A DNA stretch of 64,000 nucleotides from an uncultured Pseudomonadales bacterium (GTDB lineage: Bacteria > Patescibacteriota > Microgenomatia > UBA1400 > PJMF01), in contig CAZMXT010000004.1 of assembly GCA_964570365.1 (NCBI GenBank), positions 2,792-66,791 on the forward strand. Direction: 5' to 3'. The translations under genes and the position numbers were made by a program. This document shows, in pieces, positions 8,996 through 63,841 of the stretch; position 1 is the stretch's first letter; every line of letters begins with the position of its first letter. The notes beneath the pieces are model-generated. The model had not been told where the DNA came from and searched no databases. It saw nothing but the letters and a program-made list of their open reading frames with translations.

Positions 8996-9556
8996 CTACT
9001 TAGGCTTTACTTTGGTGGTAACTGCTTGAATACGGAACTCAAAACCGCTGTTCTCGAGTTGGGCAGTTTCAATTTTCTCGACATCCACATCACTAAATCG
9101 ACCAGAAAACTGTAAGTTATTAATTAGTAAGCTCAGTGAAACATTAGACCGAGCCACTCCATTCAGAATTACTCTACCTGGCTGAATCTCTAAAGAATCC
9201 ATCACCACATCATTCGGGGTAATTTGAGTGAGAACTGGGAAAATTTCAATAATGTTTTCTTGCTGTTCAACTTGGATATAGTTGGTAGTTTTTTTCTGAA
9301 TCGCTTTAATGTTCTCTTCGAGATCTCCATAGGAATTAATAATAGATTTTTTTTGTTGAATAGCACCATTGAGATCGGTAATTCGACGATCAAGAGTGAA
9401 GCGACTAGCAAAACTTAAGATCACGATAACTTCAGTGAAAATGATTAAATATCGACCCACAGACATCGCCCACTGCAATAATTTGCCCAGTGGCGTATCA
9501 AGAAAAGGATCTTTAGGTAGTAAGTTCACCTGAAGGGACACCGGCTTTTTCATCAC
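8996..9556 (-). CDS. pilN: type IV pilus assembly protein PilN-like
   Basis: 186 aa with a short cytoplasmic N-terminus (LQVNLLPKD), one TM and a periplasmic domain, which is the PilN topology and start motif. Confidence 0.65.
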   Translation of the reverse strand: MMKKPVSLQVNLLPKDPFLDTPLGKLLQWAMSVGRYLIIFTEVIVILSFASRFTLDRRITDLNGAIQQKKSIINSYGDLEENIKAIQKKTTNYIQVEQQENIIEIFPVLTQITPNDVVMDSLEIQPGRVILNGVARSNVSLSLLINNLQFSGRFSDVDVEKIETAQLENSGFEFRIQAVTTKVKPK

Positions 9557-41879: not shown

Positions 41880-41897
41880 TTATGTTGCGGGACTAGG
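41880..41897. repeat. 18-bp exact direct repeat of the tRNA 3' end (TTATGTTGCGGGACTAGG), distal copy (att-like)
   Basis: Identical to 42017..42034, which lies inside and just beyond the 3' end of the tRNA at 42022..42090. Confidence 0.7.
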
Positions 41898-42016: not shown

Positions 42017-42034
42017 TTATGTTGCGGGACTAGG
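42017..42034. repeat. 18-bp direct repeat, proximal copy overlapping tRNA 3' end
   Basis: Exact match to 41880..41897. Confidence 0.7.
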
Positions 42035-42090
42035 AGTCGAACCTAGCCTGTGAGATTATGAGCCTCACGTGCACCCTACACTATCCCGCG
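42022..42090 (-). tRNA. tRNA-like gene with CAU anticodon, C1·A72 mismatch (initiator-like) and unusually short D-arm (69 nt)
   Basis: Hand-folded: CGCGGGA/TA/GTG-TAGGGTG-CAC/G/TGAGG-CTCATAA-TCTCA/CAGG/CTAGG-TTCGACT-CCTAG/TCCCGCA/A. The 5' and 3' ends closely resemble E. coli tRNA-fMet (CGCGGGG...CCCCGCAACCA). Confidence 0.7.
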
Positions 42091-42632: not shown

Positions 42633-43499
42633 ATGAAAGAAACATTGCTTGAACTACGCACTAAATTTACACAGCATCTTGAAAGTGCGGGTCGTGCTCA
42701 TGCAACTGTGATTGCGTACAGCAAAGATGTAGAGCAGATTATCCAGTTTTTATCTGAAAAAGGAAAGCACTCTTTAGAGGAAATTTCTTCGGAAGATATT
42801 GAAGAGTTTAAAGAATTACTGCGCAAGCAGCGTTATATCGGTAAGTCCATTTCTCGTAAAATTAACTCGGTTAAGTCATTTTTTCGTTTTTTAATTTCTG
42901 AAGGTCTCATTACTGAGAACCCAGCCGAGATCGTGGTGCACCCAAAGTATGATCAATCCCCACCACGAGTACTTTCGAAGTTAGAGTATCGCGCCCTGCG
43001 TGATGCTTGCCGTGCTGATGTCCGCATCCACGCTATCGTGGAAGTTCTGCTGCAGACAGGGATGAGGATTAGTGAGTTAGCAGCCTTGCAAACTCAGGAG
43101 CTAGATCTTGAAAGAAACGTGATCCAAATTAAAGCCCAAAACTCTCGTGATGAGCGAAAAGTTCCCTTAAATACAGCGGCAAAGAATTCTCTAAATGATT
43201 ACCTAAAAGTCCGGCCACGGGCTCGTGAGAAAACTGTTTTCTTAACCAAAACCTGTCGTCCATTTTTAGTTCGTAACATTCGGACTGCGATTGATCGTTA
43301 CTTTAGATTAGCTGGAATTAAAGATGGTAAAGTCAATGACCTTCGCCATACTTTTATTATTGAGCAGCTCAAAGCCGGAACGCCATTAGTCTATGTTTCC
43401 CAATTAGTGGGTCACAAAAGAATTACCACGACTGAAAAATATCTCAAGTTAATTGATGCTCCAGATATGAATCCGAGTGTGCGGATTGAAGAGCTATAA
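42633..43499 (+). CDS. xerC: tyrosine site-specific recombinase, XerC/XerD family
   Basis: 288 aa with an N-terminal core-binding domain and a C-terminal catalytic region (RHTF...LVGHKRITTTEKYLKL) carrying the R..HxxR..Y catalytic residues. Confidence 0.8.
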   Translation: MKETLLELRTKFTQHLESAGRAHATVIAYSKDVEQIIQFLSEKGKHSLEEISSEDIEEFKELLRKQRYIGKSISRKINSVKSFFRFLISEGLITENPAEIVVHPKYDQSPPRVLSKLEYRALRDACRADVRIHAIVEVLLQTGMRISELAALQTQELDLERNVIQIKAQNSRDERKVPLNTAAKNSLNDYLKVRPRAREKTVFLTKTCRPFLVRNIRTAIDRYFRLAGIKDGKVNDLRHTFIIEQLKAGTPLVYVSQLVGHKRITTTEKYLKLIDAPDMNPSVRIEEL

Positions 43500-43513
43500 A
43501 AAATTGGTATACT
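43486..43513 (+). promoter_or_regulatory. candidate sigma70 promoter for trp leader: -35 TTGAAG, 16-bp spacer, extended -10 TGgTATACT
   Basis: -35 at 43486-43491 and -10 at 43508-43513 with TG at 43505-43506. The predicted transcription start is about 43520, at or next to the leader ATG, so the leader mRNA may be leaderless. Confidence 0.45.
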
Positions 43514-43520
43514 TCACACA

Positions 43521-43583
43521 ATGCAAAGTCGCATCATTCTCAGCTCTTGGTGGAGCTCCCTTTCAGAAACGGGAGTCTTTTAG
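43521..43583 (+). CDS. trpL: trp leader peptide (MQSRIILSSWWSSLSETGVF) with tandem Trp codons
   Basis: ATG at 43521. TGG TGG at 43548-43553. Stop TAG at 43581-43583. The Trp codons abut RNA segment 1 of the downstream alternative hairpins. Confidence 0.5.
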   Translation: MQSRIILSSWWSSLSETGVF

Positions 43584-43642
43584 CGTGTAGTAATTATCAC
43601 TGATAAATACAAGTACGAGGCTCCCACAAGGAGTCTTTTTTT
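43553..43642 (+). promoter_or_regulatory. transcription attenuator: alternative hairpins 1:2 (GAGCTCCC/GGGAGTC), 2:3 (GGGAGTC/GGCTCCC) and terminator 3:4 (GGCTCC-CACAA-GGAGTC + T7)
   Basis: Segments at 43553-43560, 43571-43577, 43619-43625 and 43630-43635, followed by TTTTTTT at 43636-43642. The mutually exclusive pairings were checked base by base. Confidence 0.55.
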
Positions 43643-43754
43643 GCTTAAAAAAACTCACTCCGCAGAAAAATATAGAAAAAATTACTAATTAAAGGAAGAT
43701 ATGAATGAACGATTATCAATTTACCATCATCTCTCAATCTCAAAAGGAGTCCAA

Positions 43755-44996
43755 ATGAAGTTACGAAAAACTGATCACTTTGGCATCTTTGGCGGCCGCT
43801 ATGTACCGGAAATGTTGATCTCGACTTTAGATGAGTTAAAGAAAGCGTATCGTGCCGCCAAGCATGATAAAACATTTCAAAAAGAGCTCCAGGAACTCTA
43901 TAAAACATTTAGTGGTCGGCCAACGCCATTGACCTTTGCGGCGAATCTCACAGAGTATCTAGGTGGGGCCAAGATTTACTTAAAAAATGAAGGAGCAAAT
44001 CACACTGGCGCCCACAAAATCACTCATTGCTTGGGGCAAGTTCTGTTGGCCAAAAAAATGGGTAAGAAGCGAATTATTGCGGAGACTGGCGCGGGTCAGC
44101 ACGGTTTAGCTACTGCGACTGTTGCGGCAAAATTTGGTTTGGCATGTACCATTTATATGGGTGCCAAAGACATTCAGCGTCAACGGCAAAATGTCTTTTT
44201 TATGGAGCAGCTAGGGGCAGAAGTCGTCTCAGTCAGTTTTGGTGGTCAGACTTTAAAAGATGCAGTCAATGCGGCGATTAAAGATTTACTTGCTCACTCA
44301 GCAGACACGCACTATGTGATTGGCTCGGTGCTAGGTCCGGACCCGTATCCTCGAATGAATCGTGATTTTCAGTCGATAATTGGCAGAGAAGTGCGACAGC
44401 AACTGCAGCGAGTTGAAGACAGATTGCCTGACCTGTTAATTGCTTGTGTAGGAGGTGGCAGTAATGCGATGGGTTTGTTCACAGCCTTTTTGCGAGACAC
44501 CAACGTGACGCTCTGTGGTGTCGAAGCCGGCGGAGTTGGCACCAAGTTGGGTGAGCACGCGAGTCGATTTAATGGTGGAAAAGTCGGCGTGATCGAAGGC
44601 TACAAGTCGTACTTTTTACAGACCGATGATGGCCAAGTGGCAGCAACCAGAAGCATTGCAGCAGGATTAGACTACGCCGGGATTGGGCCCGAGCTTGCCG
44701 AGCTGCATGACACAGGAAGAGTTGAGTTCACCATCGCCACCGACGCTGAAGCACTCGCCGCTTTTCAAGTTCTCGCCAAAACAGAAGGCATTTTTCCCGC
44801 GCTAGAATCCGCGCACGCGGTGGCGGAAGTGATCAAGCGCGCACCCAAAATGAAGAATACTCAAATTATAGTCGTCAATATCTCTGGCCGTGGTGACAAA
44901 GATTTATTTACGGTGGCCCGCGCTTTGAAAGATGAATCATTTCACCAGTTTTTGCAGGAAGAAGCCAACAGACCTTATTCTCAGGAGCAAACATGA
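43755..44996 (+). CDS. trpB: tryptophan synthase beta chain
   Basis: HFGIFGGRYVPE and GANHTGAHKI (PLP-lysine) motifs. AAGGAG ribosome-binding site 5 nt upstream. An alternative upstream ATG at 43701 also has a ribosome-binding site. Confidence 0.9.
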   Translation: MKLRKTDHFGIFGGRYVPEMLISTLDELKKAYRAAKHDKTFQKELQELYKTFSGRPTPLTFAANLTEYLGGAKIYLKNEGANHTGAHKITHCLGQVLLAKKMGKKRIIAETGAGQHGLATATVAAKFGLACTIYMGAKDIQRQRQNVFFMEQLGAEVVSVSFGGQTLKDAVNAAIKDLLAHSADTHYVIGSVLGPDPYPRMNRDFQSIIGREVRQQLQRVEDRLPDLLIACVGGGSNAMGLFTAFLRDTNVTLCGVEAGGVGTKLGEHASRFNGGKVGVIEGYKSYFLQTDDGQVAATRSIAAGLDYAGIGPELAELHDTGRVEFTIATDAEALAAFQVLAKTEGIFPALESAHAVAEVIKRAPKMKNTQIIVVNISGRGDKDLFTVARALKDESFHQFLQEEANRPYSQEQT

Positions 44997-45742
44997 AAAA
45001 ATTATCGTTAATGACCCACGTTGTGATTGGCTATCCTGATCTAGAATCGACCTACAGAATTGTTGAGCAGATGGTTGAGGAAGGAGTTGCCTATATCGAG
45101 CTCCAAATCCCATTCTCTGATCCCTTAGCTGATGGGCCAGTGATCATGGCGGCGAATGACCGAGCACTCAAAAATGGAGTGACGTTGAAGGATTGTTTTA
45201 AGTTCATGGAGCGAGTAAGTCACGATTTCCCTATCAATTTTCTGTTTATGGGCTACTTTAACTCGGTTTTTCACTTTGGGGTGGAAGATTTTTGCCAGCG
45301 CGCTCAGCAAGTAGGTGCCTATGGCTTAATTATCCCTGACATTCCGATTGATGAAGAACCAGCTGAGAACTTTATCAAGTCATGCGAGACACACAATTTG
45401 CATCACATACGACTACTTTCGCCGACCAGCACCTTAGAAAGAATTCAACTCAACGCCCGGTACCAAAATGGCTTTGTCTACTGCACCAGCCGGGTGGGGA
45501 CCACTGGAGCTGGGGTACAAGTAGATCCGCAGCTAGAGCAGTTTCTACAACTAGTTCGCCAGTACTTCACTGTACCAGTAGCAGTTGGGTTTGGTATTTC
45601 GCAGCCAGAACACGTCAGGGCGCTTCGTGGCATTGCTGACATTGCAGTGATTGGGAGTGCTGTGATTGAGCAGATCACTAAAAACGGGGTAGAATCGGTC
45701 CAGCCATTTATTCGACAATTAATAGAGGCTACTCAAAACTAG
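44993..45742 (+). CDS. trpA: tryptophan synthase alpha chain
   Basis: YIELQIPFSDPLADGPVI motif. The start overlaps the trpB stop (ATGA). Confidence 0.9.
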   Translation: MKKLSLMTHVVIGYPDLESTYRIVEQMVEEGVAYIELQIPFSDPLADGPVIMAANDRALKNGVTLKDCFKFMERVSHDFPINFLFMGYFNSVFHFGVEDFCQRAQQVGAYGLIIPDIPIDEEPAENFIKSCETHNLHHIRLLSPTSTLERIQLNARYQNGFVYCTSRVGTTGAGVQVDPQLEQFLQLVRQYFTVPVAVGFGISQPEHVRALRGIADIAVIGSAVIEQITKNGVESVQPFIRQLIEATQN

Positions 45743-45749
45743 GAGATTT

Positions 45750-46733
45750 ATGAAACATCGCGTTTTATCGGGAATTCGGGCCACTGGCCGTTTACACCTG
45801 GGAAACTATCTCGGTGCTGTGAAAGGCATGTTAGAGCTCCAAGCCGACCCAGATTATGAAACATTATTTATGGTCGCTGATGCCCACGCTGTCACCACCC
45901 CATTTGAGATTGAGCAACTGCGCAAAAATCGCCGCGAAGTCATTATCGATTATCTTTCGTGCGGTCTGGATCCCGTAAAAAGTGTCATTTTCCAGCAAGC
46001 TGAAGTAAGCCAACACTTTGAGCTAGCATTTTACTTCTCAGCTGTGATGACGATTGCCAAGATGCAGCACTTGCCGACCTTCAAAGACAAGGTGAAGCAG
46101 TACCCTGAACATGCCACCATGGCGTTACTGAACTACCCATTACTGATGGCAGCAGATATTTTGGTTTACAAGGCTGACTCAGTGCCAGTTGGTATTGATC
46201 AAGAACCACACTTAGAAGTGACTCGCGAAGTTGCTCGCCGAATGAACCAAGAGTACGGCACAGATTTTCCAGAACCTAAGCGGTTTGCCACCACAGGCGG
46301 CTATGTGCCATCCTTGGTAGGAGAAGGAAAAATGAGCAAGTCAGTGGAGGGTAGTTTTATTAACTTGACTGATTCACTGGAAGAAATTCAAAAGGCCCTA
46401 TCTACGGCACCGACAGACTCTGGAAAAGGTGCAACAGTTCCGACAGAAGGTGGTGTGGCAAACTTGCTCAAGTTTGTTGAGCTCTTCCAAGGTATGGAAC
46501 GTCGCCAAGCCTATGAGCAGCTGTATCAAGGAGATGGCATTCGGTATAAGCAGCTCAAAGATGAGTTAGCTGCTGCAATTTTTGCTGTACTCGAGCCTAT
46601 CCAGAAGCAGCGGGCAGAGCTTGAAGCTAAGCCGGGGTACGTAGATCAGGTTATCAAAGACGGAGCAGAAAAGGCCAGAGCAATTGCCAAGCAAACAGTC
46701 GATGAAGTGAGACAGAAGATGGGGCTGAAGTAG
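45750..46733 (+). CDS. trpS: tryptophanyl-tRNA synthetase
   Basis: Class I HIGH-like (TGRLHLGNYLGA) and KMSKS motifs. 327 aa. Confidence 0.92.
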   Translation: MKHRVLSGIRATGRLHLGNYLGAVKGMLELQADPDYETLFMVADAHAVTTPFEIEQLRKNRREVIIDYLSCGLDPVKSVIFQQAEVSQHFELAFYFSAVMTIAKMQHLPTFKDKVKQYPEHATMALLNYPLLMAADILVYKADSVPVGIDQEPHLEVTREVARRMNQEYGTDFPEPKRFATTGGYVPSLVGEGKMSKSVEGSFINLTDSLEEIQKALSTAPTDSGKGATVPTEGGVANLLKFVELFQGMERRQAYEQLYQGDGIRYKQLKDELAAAIFAVLEPIQKQRAELEAKPGYVDQVIKDGAEKARAIAKQTVDEVRQKMGLK

Positions 46734-46938
46734 TTACCCCTCTTTAATATCTACTAAGGTACTGTGAATCTTAAACATTAAGAGGATGACCTCGGCGTAG
46801 ACACGCACTGCAATCGGTCCCAAGATAATCATTAAAATTCCACCTACTGGCTCACCACTATGTTGTTGAGGCAAGGCACAGTACCTTGGATTCCAAGGAC
46901 CTTCAGCTAATTTTAAGGTCGCACCGTATAATACACGT

Positions 46939-47286
46939 ATGAAACCAACCATTGAGTACAGTGATTTTGACAAAATTGAGTTCCGAGTCGGACAGATTAT
47001 TGAGGCCAGTGCCCCTGAATGGAGTCGCAAGCTGCTGGAATTCAGAGTTGACTTTGGATCTGAGTTTGGAGTAAAAACCATCTTGTCAGGTGTTCGCCAG
47101 TGGTACCAACCTGAAGATTTTTTAAATAAAAAGTTTCCCTTCATCATTAACTTGGCGGAGCGAAAAATGGGCGAGGGTGTTAGTCAGGGCATGATGTTTA
47201 TGGCTGACGCAGAAATAAACGGTGAGCTGCGCCCAGTCTCTCTTCCACTCTCAGTGGAGCTACCCGTTGGTTCTCAACTCCGCTAA
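46939..47286 (+). CDS. csaA: tRNA-binding domain protein (CsaA/Trbp111/EMAP-like)
   Basis: 115-aa OB-fold tRNA-binding signature (FRVGQIIEA...KLLEFRVDFG...ILSGV). Confidence 0.7.
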   Translation: MKPTIEYSDFDKIEFRVGQIIEASAPEWSRKLLEFRVDFGSEFGVKTILSGVRQWYQPEDFLNKKFPFIINLAERKMGEGVSQGMMFMADAEINGELRPVSLPLSVELPVGSQLR

Positions 47287-61290: not shown

Positions 61291-63642
61291 ATGTCATACC
61301 CGACATATGGTCAAACATATAAAAAAGATATTCAGGTGGGCGATAAAGTCGTTTCCATTGAAATCGGTAAGTACTCAGAGCAAGCTTCGGCTGCAGTGCT
61401 GGCTACTTGTGGTGGTACGGTGGTTCACTCCACGATCGTCTTAGGTCGCAAAGTCGACTTGGGATACTTCCCCCTCTCAGTTGAGTTTATTGAAAAGCTC
61501 TCTGCCGGTGGCATTATTAAAGGTTCTCGCTGGGTTAAGCGCGATGGTCGGCCAACCGATGATGCTGTCTTAAAAGGTCGCGTCATTGATCGAACTCTTC
61601 GCCCGATGTTCCCAGAAGGCATGACCAATGAAGTCCAGATCGCCGTCACGGTTTTTTCTACTGATAAAGAAAATGATGCTGATATGGTTGGTATGTTGGC
61701 GACCTCAATTGCCTTATCTGTTTCTGAGATTCCATTTGATGGACCAGTGACTGGTTTAAGAATGGGCTACAGCAAGGCAGATCAGAAATACTCGATTAAC
61801 CCAACTGATACTGAGCGCAAAGAGCTGGACATGGACTTAATTGTCTCTGGAAATGCTGATGCGATTGTAATGGTTGAGGCAGGTGCCAACGAAGTGACTG
61901 AGGCTGTGATTCTGGAAGCATTCAAGCAAGCTCAAGCTGAGCTGGGCAAGATCTGCACCGAGATTAACGCCATCGTCAAAGAAATTGGCAAAACCAAGCG
62001 CACCGACGTGTTGCCGAAGCCAGTCGAAGCTTCCGTGACTGAAGTGAAGGCAACCTTGGCCAAGAAGTACAAAAAAGAAGTTCAAGACATGATCCGTAAG
62101 GAAGGTGTTTTGGAGGAAACAGGCCTGAGTGAACTGATCGAGAAGATCGTCGCCGAAAACCAACCAGCTGAGGGGCAAGCACCAAGTCTGATGGCAGATG
62201 CCAAAGTCTTAGGAAACCTGTTCCAGGAGCTGATGGCTGAAGAAGGTCGCCGGATGATCGTTGAAGAACAGGTCCGTCCAGATGGTCGCAAGACTGATGA
62301 GATTCGCCCAATCTGGTGTGAAGTCGATATTTTCCCTCGCACACATGGTTCCGCCATGTTCAAGCGTGGAGCTACCCAAGTGCTATCAGTGGCCACTTTA
62401 GGTTCACCATCACTTGGTCAGTTGATTGAAGATATGACAGGTGAGCAAGTTCGTCACTACATACATCACTACAGCATGCCCCCATATGCTGCTGGCGAAA
62501 CCGGTCGCTTTGGTTCACCAAAACGCCGCGAAATTGGGCACGGAGCCTTAGCCGAGCGCGCACTCTGGCCGGTGATCCCGTCCCAAAAAGAATTCCCATA
62601 CACTATTCACGTTATCTCCGAAGTGGTCAGTTCCAACGGCTCTACCTCTCAAGGTTCAGTCTGTGGCTCCACCATGTCATTGATGGCTGCTGGTGTACCA
62701 ATCAAGGCACCCGTCGCAGGAATTGCAATGGGCTTGATGACCAATGGGAAAGGCAAGTACGTCGTACTTTCTGACATCCAGGGTTTGGAAGATCACATCG
62801 GTGATATGGACTTTAAAGTCGCCGGTACTGCCAATGGTGTAACTGCTCTCCAGATGGACATCAAGATCAAAGGTATTCCTTCTGATGTCATGACTCAAGC
62901 TCTTAACCAAGCTCAGGTCGGTCGGATGCATATCTTAGGCAAGATGCTGGAAGTGATTCCAGAGTCCAGAAAGACCCTCTCTGAGTACGCGCCAAAGATC
63001 CAACAGCTCGAGATCCCAGCTGACCGAATTGGTGAGTTAATCGGCCCAGGTGGGAAGATGATTAAGAGTATCATCGAAGAAACCGGTGCGCAGATCGACG
63101 TCGACGAAGATGAAGAACGCGGAGTTGGTTTAGTCAATATTTCTTCACCAGATCAGAAAAAGCTCGATAATGCCTATAAATTCATTAGTGACATGATGCG
63201 CAGCATTGAGGTCGGCGAAGAGTTTGATGGCGAAGTCAACCGAGTTGAGAGCTATGGTGCTTTTGTGAACATTGCTCCTAACAAAGATGGACTCGTCCAC
63301 GTTTCTGGCATGTCTACTGAGTATGTCCGAGATGCGAGTGACATTGTCAAACTTGGAGATAGGATTCACGTTCGCGTGAGCGAGATTCAAGAAGATGGCA
63401 AGATTAAGTTAACCATGCTGACCCCTGAACAAGAGGAAGCGGCGGCCGCAGGCCGACGCGGTGGTGGGGATCGAGGCGGATCTTCGTTCGGTCCAGACCG
63501 CAGCTCAGATCGCGGTGGCTTTGGTGGCGGACGACCTCCATTCAGAGGAGGAGATCGCGGTGGAGACCGAGGCGGTAGCCGAGGGGGCTTTGGTGGGAGT
63601 AGACCTCCATTCCGCGGTGGTGACCGTGGAGATCGTCGGTAA
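61291..63642 (+). CDS. pnp: polynucleotide phosphorylase (PNPase) with C-terminal Arg/Gly-rich repeat tail
   Basis: Two RNase PH domains, KH and S1 domains. An extra ~70-aa C-terminal RGG/GD low-complexity tail contains two GGFGG(G/S)RPPFRGGDRG repeats. Confidence 0.95.
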   Translation: MSYPTYGQTYKKDIQVGDKVVSIEIGKYSEQASAAVLATCGGTVVHSTIVLGRKVDLGYFPLSVEFIEKLSAGGIIKGSRWVKRDGRPTDDAVLKGRVIDRTLRPMFPEGMTNEVQIAVTVFSTDKENDADMVGMLATSIALSVSEIPFDGPVTGLRMGYSKADQKYSINPTDTERKELDMDLIVSGNADAIVMVEAGANEVTEAVILEAFKQAQAELGKICTEINAIVKEIGKTKRTDVLPKPVEASVTEVKATLAKKYKKEVQDMIRKEGVLEETGLSELIEKIVAENQPAEGQAPSLMADAKVLGNLFQELMAEEGRRMIVEEQVRPDGRKTDEIRPIWCEVDIFPRTHGSAMFKRGATQVLSVATLGSPSLGQLIEDMTGEQVRHYIHHYSMPPYAAGETGRFGSPKRREIGHGALAERALWPVIPSQKEFPYTIHVISEVVSSNGSTSQGSVCGSTMSLMAAGVPIKAPVAGIAMGLMTNGKGKYVVLSDIQGLEDHIGDMDFKVAGTANGVTALQMDIKIKGIPSDVMTQALNQAQVGRMHILGKMLEVIPESRKTLSEYAPKIQQLEIPADRIGELIGPGGKMIKSIIEETGAQIDVDEDEERGVGLVNISSPDQKKLDNAYKFISDMMRSIEVGEEFDGEVNRVESYGAFVNIAPNKDGLVHVSGMSTEYVRDASDIVKLGDRIHVRVSEIQEDGKIKLTMLTPEQEEAAAAGRRGGGDRGGSSFGPDRSSDRGGFGGGRPPFRGGDRGGDRGGSRGGFGGSRPPFRGGDRGDRR

Positions 63643-63841
63643 ATTGAATTGAAATAAATCGTATGGGGACTGGGCGCAGCACTGGGAACAGGACAAGCGG
63701 CAGTCCCCGTTAAATACTTCAAGAACCCTTATTTCTAGGAGTACTGTCGGACTCTTGCTATCCATAAATTTTTTCGATGTCATTTTGTGACTTCTGAACG
63801 ATATTTGTCATGAATGAATTCTAGCATGCTACACTCTTAGC

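Follow-up and report, generated by a model that had tools for sequence, protein, structure and literature searches.

The question raised by this locus is how a bacterium of the Patescibacteria controls three tryptophan-related genes, trpB, trpA and trpS, which stand together in the 64,000-nucleotide (nt) stretch of contig CAZMXT010000004.1 analysed here (the window). An earlier interpretation, made from the letters of the DNA alone (the sequence-only reading), had described upstream of trpB a promoter, a short leader open reading frame (ORF) with tandem Trp codons and a set of alternative RNA hairpins ending in an intrinsic terminator, and had proposed classical attenuation. The positions given for the promoter, the ORF, the Trp codons, the pairing segments and the terminator all agree with the sequence, and the three genes do lie downstream (Table 1). 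Judged by its conserved sequence elements and predicted folding, the region very probably encodes a ribosome-mediated leader-peptide attenuator that would sense charged tRNA-Trp and control trpB-trpA-trpS.

The leader has a compact layout. A promoter scan also picked the -35-like and extended -10 elements listed in Table 1 (9 of 12 matches, with the TG present), which would act as the promoter, and their TATACT hexamer is separated from the leader ATG by 7 nt. No Shine-Dalgarno sequence precedes this ATG, either in the window or in three related loci, L182, L183 and L184. Downstream of the tandem Trp codons lie four segments that can form three mutually exclusive helices, 1:2, 2:3 and 3:4, the last being the terminator. 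Segment 1 begins 0-2 nt past the second UGG and segment 2 begins 10 nt further.

In the mechanism we propose, transcription would begin about 7 nt past TATACT, at or next to the leader AUG, and the ribosome would load directly on the 5' end. When Trp-tRNA is scarce, the ribosome would stall at UGG-UGG; because segment 1 directly follows the second Trp codon, a stalled ribosome, given the generally known size of its footprint, would cover segment 1. Segment 3 would then be captured by segment 2 directly on its synthesis, the terminator would be blocked and RNA polymerase would continue into trpB-trpA-trpS. When Trp-tRNA is plentiful, the ribosome would reach the stop codon (UAA in the 1:2 loop in the relatives, UAG just past segment 2 in the window) and cover segment 2, so that 3:4 forms and, with the U7 tract, transcription ends near position 43642, after about 120 nt of RNA. 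As trpS lies inside the controlled unit, the loop would report both Trp supply and the activity of tryptophanyl-tRNA synthetase (TrpRS).

Predicted folds are consistent with this switch. Duplex energies allow the 1:2, 2:3 and 3:4 helices in all five sequences compared (the window, L182-L184 and the more distant L162): in the window they amount to -10.5, -16.0 and -11.9 kcal/mol, and over the five sequences they range from -6.7 to -10.5, from -11.4 to -16.0 and from -11.9 to -18.0 kcal/mol, respectively. To model the stalled ribosome we placed one or the other Trp codon in its A site, masked the RNA through +13 nt and left segment 4 untranscribed. Under these constraints the 2:3 antiterminator is the minimum free energy (MFE) structure in each of the four leaders (-13.1 to -18.6 kcal/mol), and with the ribosome placed at the stop codon the terminator alone forms.

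The informative relatives were found by a search seeded with TrpS; TrpB-seeded searches were useless for comparing leaders. L182, L183 and L184, with TrpS proteins 81-82% identical, each carry a homologous leader element, and the leader is identical in six same-species contigs from different samples. Identical loci are present in the samples of JGI 3300020192 and 3300020203 and of ENA ERZ505514. The tandem Trp codons, the three exclusive helices and the terminator described by the sequence-only reading are thus kept in these relatives. Their leader ORFs have 16-17 codons, with variable N-terminal codons and an in-frame TGG-TGG. The distance from ATG to TGGTGG is 27, 33, 30 and 30 nt (window, L182, L183 and L184), in frame throughout, so the changes in length keep the frame. 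Among the four leaders the invariant DNA blocks are TATACT, CTTGGTGG, CTCCC, AACGGGAGT, GCTCCC, GGGAG and the T-run, and in RNA terms CUUGGUGG..CUCCC and ACGGGAGU; the N-terminal codons, the 1:2 loop, the 35-42-nt spacer between segments 2 and 3 and the terminator loop are not conserved. In L182-L184 the ORF stops exactly four codons past the two Trp residues, within the 1:2 loop and with its UAA directly 5' of ACGGGAGU.

L182-L184 have homologous terminators with U6-U7 tracts, and so does L161 at its 5' end, where the contig starts inside the terminator. L162, a more distant locus with trpBA only, has a diverged, degenerate leader whose ORF, MCKHSYDLRVGSWRNSNK plus stop, reads TGG-CGG in place of TGG-TGG and stops at the same offset as in the relatives. 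There, segment 1 is CUCCA and segment 2 UGGAG, which preserves the pairing of helix 1:2; the promoter is strong, the 2:3 and 3:4 helices are perfect, the U-tract is poor and the leader is not leaderless. Beyond the leader family itself, the covariance model R1 recovered only weak matches to L162 and L161, to an aromatic leader in L002 that is unrelated, and to a terminator close to the tRNA-Met gene.

Table 1 Features of the leader region, corresponding leaders in related loci, and adjacent genes (positions in the window).
Feature	Position	Strand	Description	Basis or remark
Promoter (predicted)	43486..43513	+	TTGAAG (-35-like) 43486-91, 16-nt spacer, TG 43505-06, extended -10 TGg-TATACT 43505-13	Sequence
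Leader ORF	43521..43583	+	ATG at 43521; 20 codons + TAG (43581-83); peptide MQSRIILSSWWSSLSETGVF	Sequence
Tandem Trp codons	43548..43553	+	TGG-TGG, proposed sensing site	Sequence; kept in 4/4 leaders
Segment 1	43553..43560	+	DNA GAGCTCCC, RNA GAGCUCCC, core GCUCCC	Pairs with segment 2
Segment 2	43571..43577	+	GGGAGTC (GGGAGUC)	Pairs with segment 1 or segment 3
Variable spacer inside 2:3 helix	43584..43616	+	Contains small local hairpin	Folds; sequence differs among relatives
Intrinsic terminator	43617..43642	+	Segment 3 (GAGGCUCC; GGCTCCC 43619-25), loop, segment 4 (GGAGUCUU; GGAGTC 43630-35), U7 (T7 43636-42)	Terminator scan (8-pair stem 43617-37 plus T-run)
L182 leader			TATACT-7nt-ATG, MLDNKQSLAPSWWHSQI then stop	Terminator GCUCC-cucg-GGAGC-U7
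L183 leader			TATACT-6nt-ATG, MFSRTTSTTAWWNSLS then stop	Terminator GCUCCCG-cuggu-CGGGAGU-U6
L184 leader			TATACT-6nt-ATG, MFGHANSTTAWWNSLQ then stop	Terminator stem as L183, loop different
Tyrosine recombinase	42633-43499		Upstream of leader	Pfam
orfY remnant	43701..43754	+	Small ORF, conserved between leader and trpB in relatives	Strain-contig comparison
trpB	43755..44996	+	Tryptophan synthase beta	Pfam PALP 9.5e-42; 78% identical to tryptophan synthase beta chains annotated by the Joint Genome Institute (JGI)
trpA	44993..45742	+	Tryptophan synthase alpha; 4-nt overlap with trpB	Pfam Trp_syntA 7.5e-71; catalytic motif IELQIPFSDPLADGP intact
trpS	45750..46733	+	Tryptophanyl-tRNA synthetase; 7 nt past trpA	Pfam tRNA-synt_1b 1.5e-58

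The co-occurrence of these features exceeds chance. Trp makes up 1.0% of the residues in the long ORFs of the window, and two adjacent Trp residues (WW) occur twice in 17,787 residues. A generic screen of 1.45 Mb, both strands, for ORFs of at most 45 codons with WW or WxW and with a hairpin plus T-run within 220 nt returned this element, its homologues and 3 other matches. Viral contigs, scanned for the pattern, yielded 59 chance matches, and not one of these had a downstream terminator or the full architecture.

These comparisons bear on the simplest alternative, that the region holds two unrelated ordinary terminators, the first belonging to the upstream recombinase and the second a spare, with the ORF a chance frame. 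In the window, hairpin 1:2 is indeed followed by UUUU and lies 54 nt past the recombinase stop codon, terminators of the CUCCC...GGGAG kind are found elsewhere in related genomes, and the whole-region MFE z-score is just -1.4, an unremarkable value that is expected of a switch with competing folds. However, no U-run follows segment 2 in the relatives, and the L182 element follows a different gene, a 108-amino-acid (aa) ORF, and precedes trpS. Preservation of TGG-TGG, ATG, frame and stop across 81-82%-identical genomes would be unexpected for chance ORFs, and the background of the screen is about 3 matches per 2.9 Mb scanned. We consider two independent terminators very unlikely.

We also compared the region with known RNA regulators. 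No Rfam family reaches its threshold in the window or the relatives. The T-box (RF00230) gave no match at E <=10 in the window and L183, or at E <=1 in L182-L184 and L162, and the Trp_leader family (RF00513) gave none in L182-L184 or L162; at these E values L182-L184 and L162 matched no other Rfam family either. The array expected for the trp RNA-binding attenuation protein (TRAP), 9-11 GAG/UAG triplets 2-3 nt apart, is absent; each leader has just 3-6 such triplets, spread out at uneven distances. On these grounds we rejected a T-box, TRAP or another Rfam RNA as the regulator.

A real hairpin switch set by uncharged tRNA-Trp in the manner of a T-box, by a TRAP-like protein or by a tryptophan riboswitch, with the ORF incidental, would nonetheless share several properties with what is seen here. 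CUUGGUGGnnCUCCC and ACGGGAGU, both of them invariant, might serve as a binding site, UGGUGG resembles the UGGN of the T-box bulge, the leader is without a Shine-Dalgarno sequence, and covariation cannot separate the models. The T-box found on trpS and trp genes of Firmicutes would also give the same output, with expression rising at low charged tRNA-Trp through a terminator and antiterminator. In a T-box, however, uncharged tRNA itself is bound by Stem I and the T-box bulge, neither of which was found here. The roughly 27-33 nt from the predicted start to UGGUGG leave no room for Stem I. Besides the lack of Rfam matches at permissive E values and of a triplet array, such a switch leaves unexplained the ATG 6-7 nt from the -10 box, the frame-keeping lengths and the stop four codons past WW. 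We therefore regard it as unlikely, and prefer a ribosome that reads the leader codons.

Several results weigh against ribosome-mediated attenuation, or at least temper it. There are only four full leaders, of which L183 and L184 are close to one another. The match of the window to RF00513 reaches only 17.8 bits (E 2.3; gathering threshold 41); the element resembles this family in its workings without belonging to it. With no Shine-Dalgarno sequence, translation of the leader hinges on its transcript being leaderless. The sequence-only reading had placed the stop just past segment 2, and the UAG does lie there, 3 nt 3' of segment 2, but this is not the family state: GAA occupies the family stop position in the window and the frame reads five codons on to TAG at 43581, so that the window's stop position is the derived one.

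The folds add two further points of this kind. Full-length RNA of L182-L184 with segment 1 masked still favours the terminator at equilibrium, so the switch must be kinetic; in the E. coli trp operon the terminator is likewise more stable than the antiterminator, and the switch is kinetic there too. For the window, the truncated fold without a ribosome prefers an upstream hairpin, AGCUCU/GGAGCU, plus 2:3 over 1:2; this upstream hairpin is a local peculiarity of the window. Lastly, covariation in related genomes had been suggested as a check. The Trp codons and segments are conserved, but counting over the four leaders gave no covariation signal: 98-100% of positions pair, 0 pairs are changed on both sides and shuffles equal what is observed. 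Since the paired positions are nearly invariant, covariation is uninformative, and pairing-preserving changes appear only in L162 and L161. Support for the predicted structure comes from the conserved dual-pairing segments, the logic of their arrangement and thermodynamics, not from covariation.

The start of transcription deserves separate consideration. The sequence-only reading had placed it at the leader ATG, and the relatives bear this out as far as spacing goes: the TATACT hexamer is unchanged in the window, L182, L183 and L184 and always lies 6-7 nt 5' of the ATG, while the -35 position is not conserved in L183 and L184. On the strength of this spacing in four genomes and of the missing Shine-Dalgarno sequence, the leader likely lies on a leaderless transcript that starts at or beside the ATG. 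The downstream genes are arranged differently, with AGGAG-type Shine-Dalgarno sites before trpB (AAAGGAG), trpA and trpS. Elsewhere in the window, the gene for a tRNA-binding-domain protein has TATAAT 6 nt before its ATG at 46939, and the same layout recurs at at least five other genes: -10-like hexamers (TATAAT, TATACT or TACAAT) 6-7 nt before an ATG that has no Shine-Dalgarno sequence were found at 9553(-), 11289(-), 14038(+), 17174(-), 25170(+) and 46939(+). This suggests that leaderless mRNAs are frequent in this genome.

Leader peptides of other kinds were met in related and unlabelled contigs. A second type, with peptides MNINQVNYFWFYFATRREVS (L002:3068-3190) and MNKVQTNYFWFYFTTIMGVG (L003:7254-7373), each closed by a stop codon, carries a NYFWFYF run; the leader peptide and terminator at L082:8254-8373 are the same as those of L003. 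These leaders have a CUCCC..GGGAG terminator with U7 and stand upstream of genes for 3-deoxy-D-arabino-heptulosonate 7-phosphate (DAHP) synthase and 3-dehydroquinate synthase. The loci are related by TrpB; L003 is titled Patescibacteria group bacterium and L002 Gammaproteobacteria. The NYFWFYF leader looks like an aromatic-amino-acid attenuator. On an unlabelled metagenome contig (L085:5625-5765), a leader ORF encoding MSGFINQTQAYYYTFASFGEVDDAIEQT and a stop (YYYTF), followed by the terminator CUCCCC-gaaa-GGGGAG-U7, precedes a prephenate-dehydrogenase-like gene, judged by eye from its GLGLIGGS N-terminus, and is a candidate Tyr/Phe attenuator.

Comparison with characterized systems shows where the element is conventional. 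E. coli trpL (RF00513) likewise has a short leader ORF (14 aa there, 16-20 here) whose tandem Trp codons sit where segment 1 begins and whose stop follows within a few codons. It shares the 1:2, 2:3 and 3:4 helices and an intrinsic terminator with a U-tract, and the stop within the 1:2 loop of the relatives mirrors it. There is no detectable homology of sequence or structure between the two, however, and the controlled genes are trpEDCBA in E. coli and trpB-trpA-trpS here, where the host belongs to the Patescibacteria and the leader is without a Shine-Dalgarno sequence and probably leaderless. An aminoacyl-tRNA synthetase operon under ribosome stalling at cognate codons is known from E. coli pheM-pheST (also cited in PMC1262725), which differs from the present element in its amino acid (Phe, not Trp), its proteobacterial host and its leader with a Shine-Dalgarno sequence.

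The sequence-only reading had called attenuation of this type unusual outside Proteobacteria and on a trpBA-trpS unit, which is overstated given precedents in Actinobacteria (PMC1262725, PMC8079986). Classical attenuators have been predicted there upstream of trp operons, trpS and trpB2A (trp and trpB2A in Corynebacterium), and segments that serve several pairings are strongly conserved in attenuators (PMC1262725). RNA-seq of Streptomyces lividans has revealed leaderless leader peptides, including trpL1 (MFAHSTRNWWWTAHPAAH, upstream of trpE) and trpL2 (upstream of trpS) (PMC8079986). The actinobacterial attenuators therefore share with ours an occurrence outside Proteobacteria, leaderless leaders, a position before trpS and before a trpBA unit, and conserved segments. 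They differ in phylum and in the type of segment (GGCC/GCC there, CUCCC/GGGAG here), and here one leader serves trpBA together with trpS; the leader before trpS in S. lividans contains just one Trp codon and lacks a U-tract. The indole-salvage trpRBA of Chlamydia trachomatis is also a trpBA-only unit of a reduced genome under Trp-dependent control, but its annotated TrpL is atypical and unvalidated, with attenuation acting through YtgR (PMC7755916), whereas the design here is the canonical one with two adjacent Trp codons.

The terminated leader might also act at another level. An attenuator could work mainly through coupling or reinitiation onto the small ORFs and trpB, or through its leader RNA or peptide in trans. 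The attenuator is predicted to yield a stable, terminated RNA of about 120 nt, and trans roles are documented for the RNA and peptide of the Sinorhizobium trp attenuator, rnTrpL and peTrpL (PMC6614838, PMC7298713). Against this, the N-terminal peptide sequence is not conserved, the U6-7 tracts indicate termination of transcription in cis, and no trans target came to light, in an analysis that included no search for one. We judge it most improbable that the main action lies there; such roles would supplement the cis mechanism, not replace it.

The genes that follow the leader vary among the loci. The order trpB-trpA-trpS is kept in relatives, and the closest lineages have in common the order DivIC, recombinase, small ORFs, trpB, trpA, trpS, tRNA_bind and ftsH; in the window, too, the genes downstream of trpS are the tRNA-binding-domain gene and ftsH (Pfam). 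In L183, L184 and L161 the leader is followed by two small ORFs, orfX and orfY, and then by trpB-trpA-trpS. In L182, where the preceding gene differs, there is no trpBA, and a small ORF and trpS come next after the leader; in L162 a diverged leader stands before trpBA alone. As the leader stands before Trp genes whose neighbours differ, the element travels with Trp-related genes and not with the recombinase.

Among proteins with named sources, those closest to TrpB come from Levybacteria, Daviesbacteria, Microgenomates and 'Patescibacteria group' (66-69% identity), and relatives of FtsH from 'Patescibacteria group bacterium' (75%) and Candidatus Pacebacteria (71-73%). These similarities place the window in a genome of the Patescibacteria, or Candidate Phyla Radiation (CPR), of the Microgenomatia/Pacebacteria type. 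A TrpB search of genome and metagenome contigs returned relatives all at <=71% identity. Among the TrpB relatives resembling those of the CPR, trpF precedes trpB, hence no leader adjoins trpB. Many of the closest TrpB proteins (76-78% identity) are encoded within full trpEGDCFBA operons. That trpC, trpD, trpE, trpF and trpG are missing, as the sequence-only reading had stated, holds within the 64-kb window, and none of these genes is next to trpB in the closest syntenic relatives. The indole salvage drawn from this is plausible but not shown, as only this window was seen and TrpA retains its catalytic motif.

Of the small ORFs, orfY adjoins trpB upstream and overlaps its start (L172:3782-4009, L183:4700-5002, L184:4714-5004, L161:456-890 and L162:3810-4004), with the motif RLSLIDGS..EPVF..V.RV..TLDG.EE.E.K...GFR.R. 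It is intact (75 aa) in strain contig L172, and the window and five other strain contigs have a 172-nt deletion; a 2-nt TC indel at about 43731 distinguishes other strain contigs from the window. A further small ORF, orfX (L161:108-428, L182:5681-5975, L183:4505-4700 and L184:4461-4646), comes after the leader and ahead of orfY or trpS. It is intact in L161 (106 aa), and in L182, L183 and L184 it is split at a similar point. The two frames of the L182 copy share an overlap at CTTTTTTAG (~5838), which may represent either a frameshift site or decay. Neither orfX nor orfY has a Pfam match.

Other observations concern the flanks. The 205-nt gap between trpS and the tRNA-binding gene (46734-46938) has no obvious intrinsic terminator and contains its own -10 box; in L183 and L184 these two genes are 15-19 nt apart. 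An 18-nt direct repeat, TTATGTTGCGGGACTAGG, occurs at 41880-41897 and 42017-42034, and its second copy is the 3' end of a tRNA-Met gene (42021-42090, minus strand); the repeat looks like the scar of an integration at tRNA-Met, with the tyrosine recombinase gene lying about 600 nt downstream. At ~63500-63650 the window has a coding region rich in Arg-Gly repeats (GGDRGG/RGG-like).

We found no earlier report of leader-peptide attenuation in Patescibacteria/CPR in a literature search that did not cover all journals. What is new is the occurrence in Patescibacteria; the mechanism is the textbook one, and each of its unusual aspects has a precedent in Actinobacteria. Regulation in these bacteria is almost unstudied: they are mostly uncultured, with reduced genomes, and obtain metabolites from hosts or neighbours. 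A canonical attenuator would show that their translation is coupled to transcription closely enough for the position of the ribosome to serve as a sensor, that initiation on leaderless mRNAs is probable, and that charged tRNA-Trp is monitored to control the last Trp steps (or indole salvage) together with TrpRS. The element is small and conserved and so directly testable in E. coli or cell-free systems, and its layout, in which a -10 box is followed after 6-7 nt by the ATG of a short ORF containing a codon run and then by a terminator, offers a search image for attenuators in metagenomes.

We wondered, finally, whether leader-peptide attenuation on leaderless transcripts is a general Patescibacteria device for aromatic amino-acid genes and not a one-off, which we propose tentatively, as a possibility that falls somewhat short of being probable. 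If so, the WW leader would first have stood on trpS (the state of L182, in a Pacebacteria-like clade), with the cassette of orfX/orfY and trpBA inserted later, and in other related lineages DAHP synthase and a prephenate-dehydrogenase-like gene would be under separate leaders, NYFWFYF and YYY. The amino acids sensed could then be read out from sequence, and tight coupling of transcription and translation, with 70S ribosomes loading at a 5' AUG, would be a feature of these reduced, largely uncultured bacteria.

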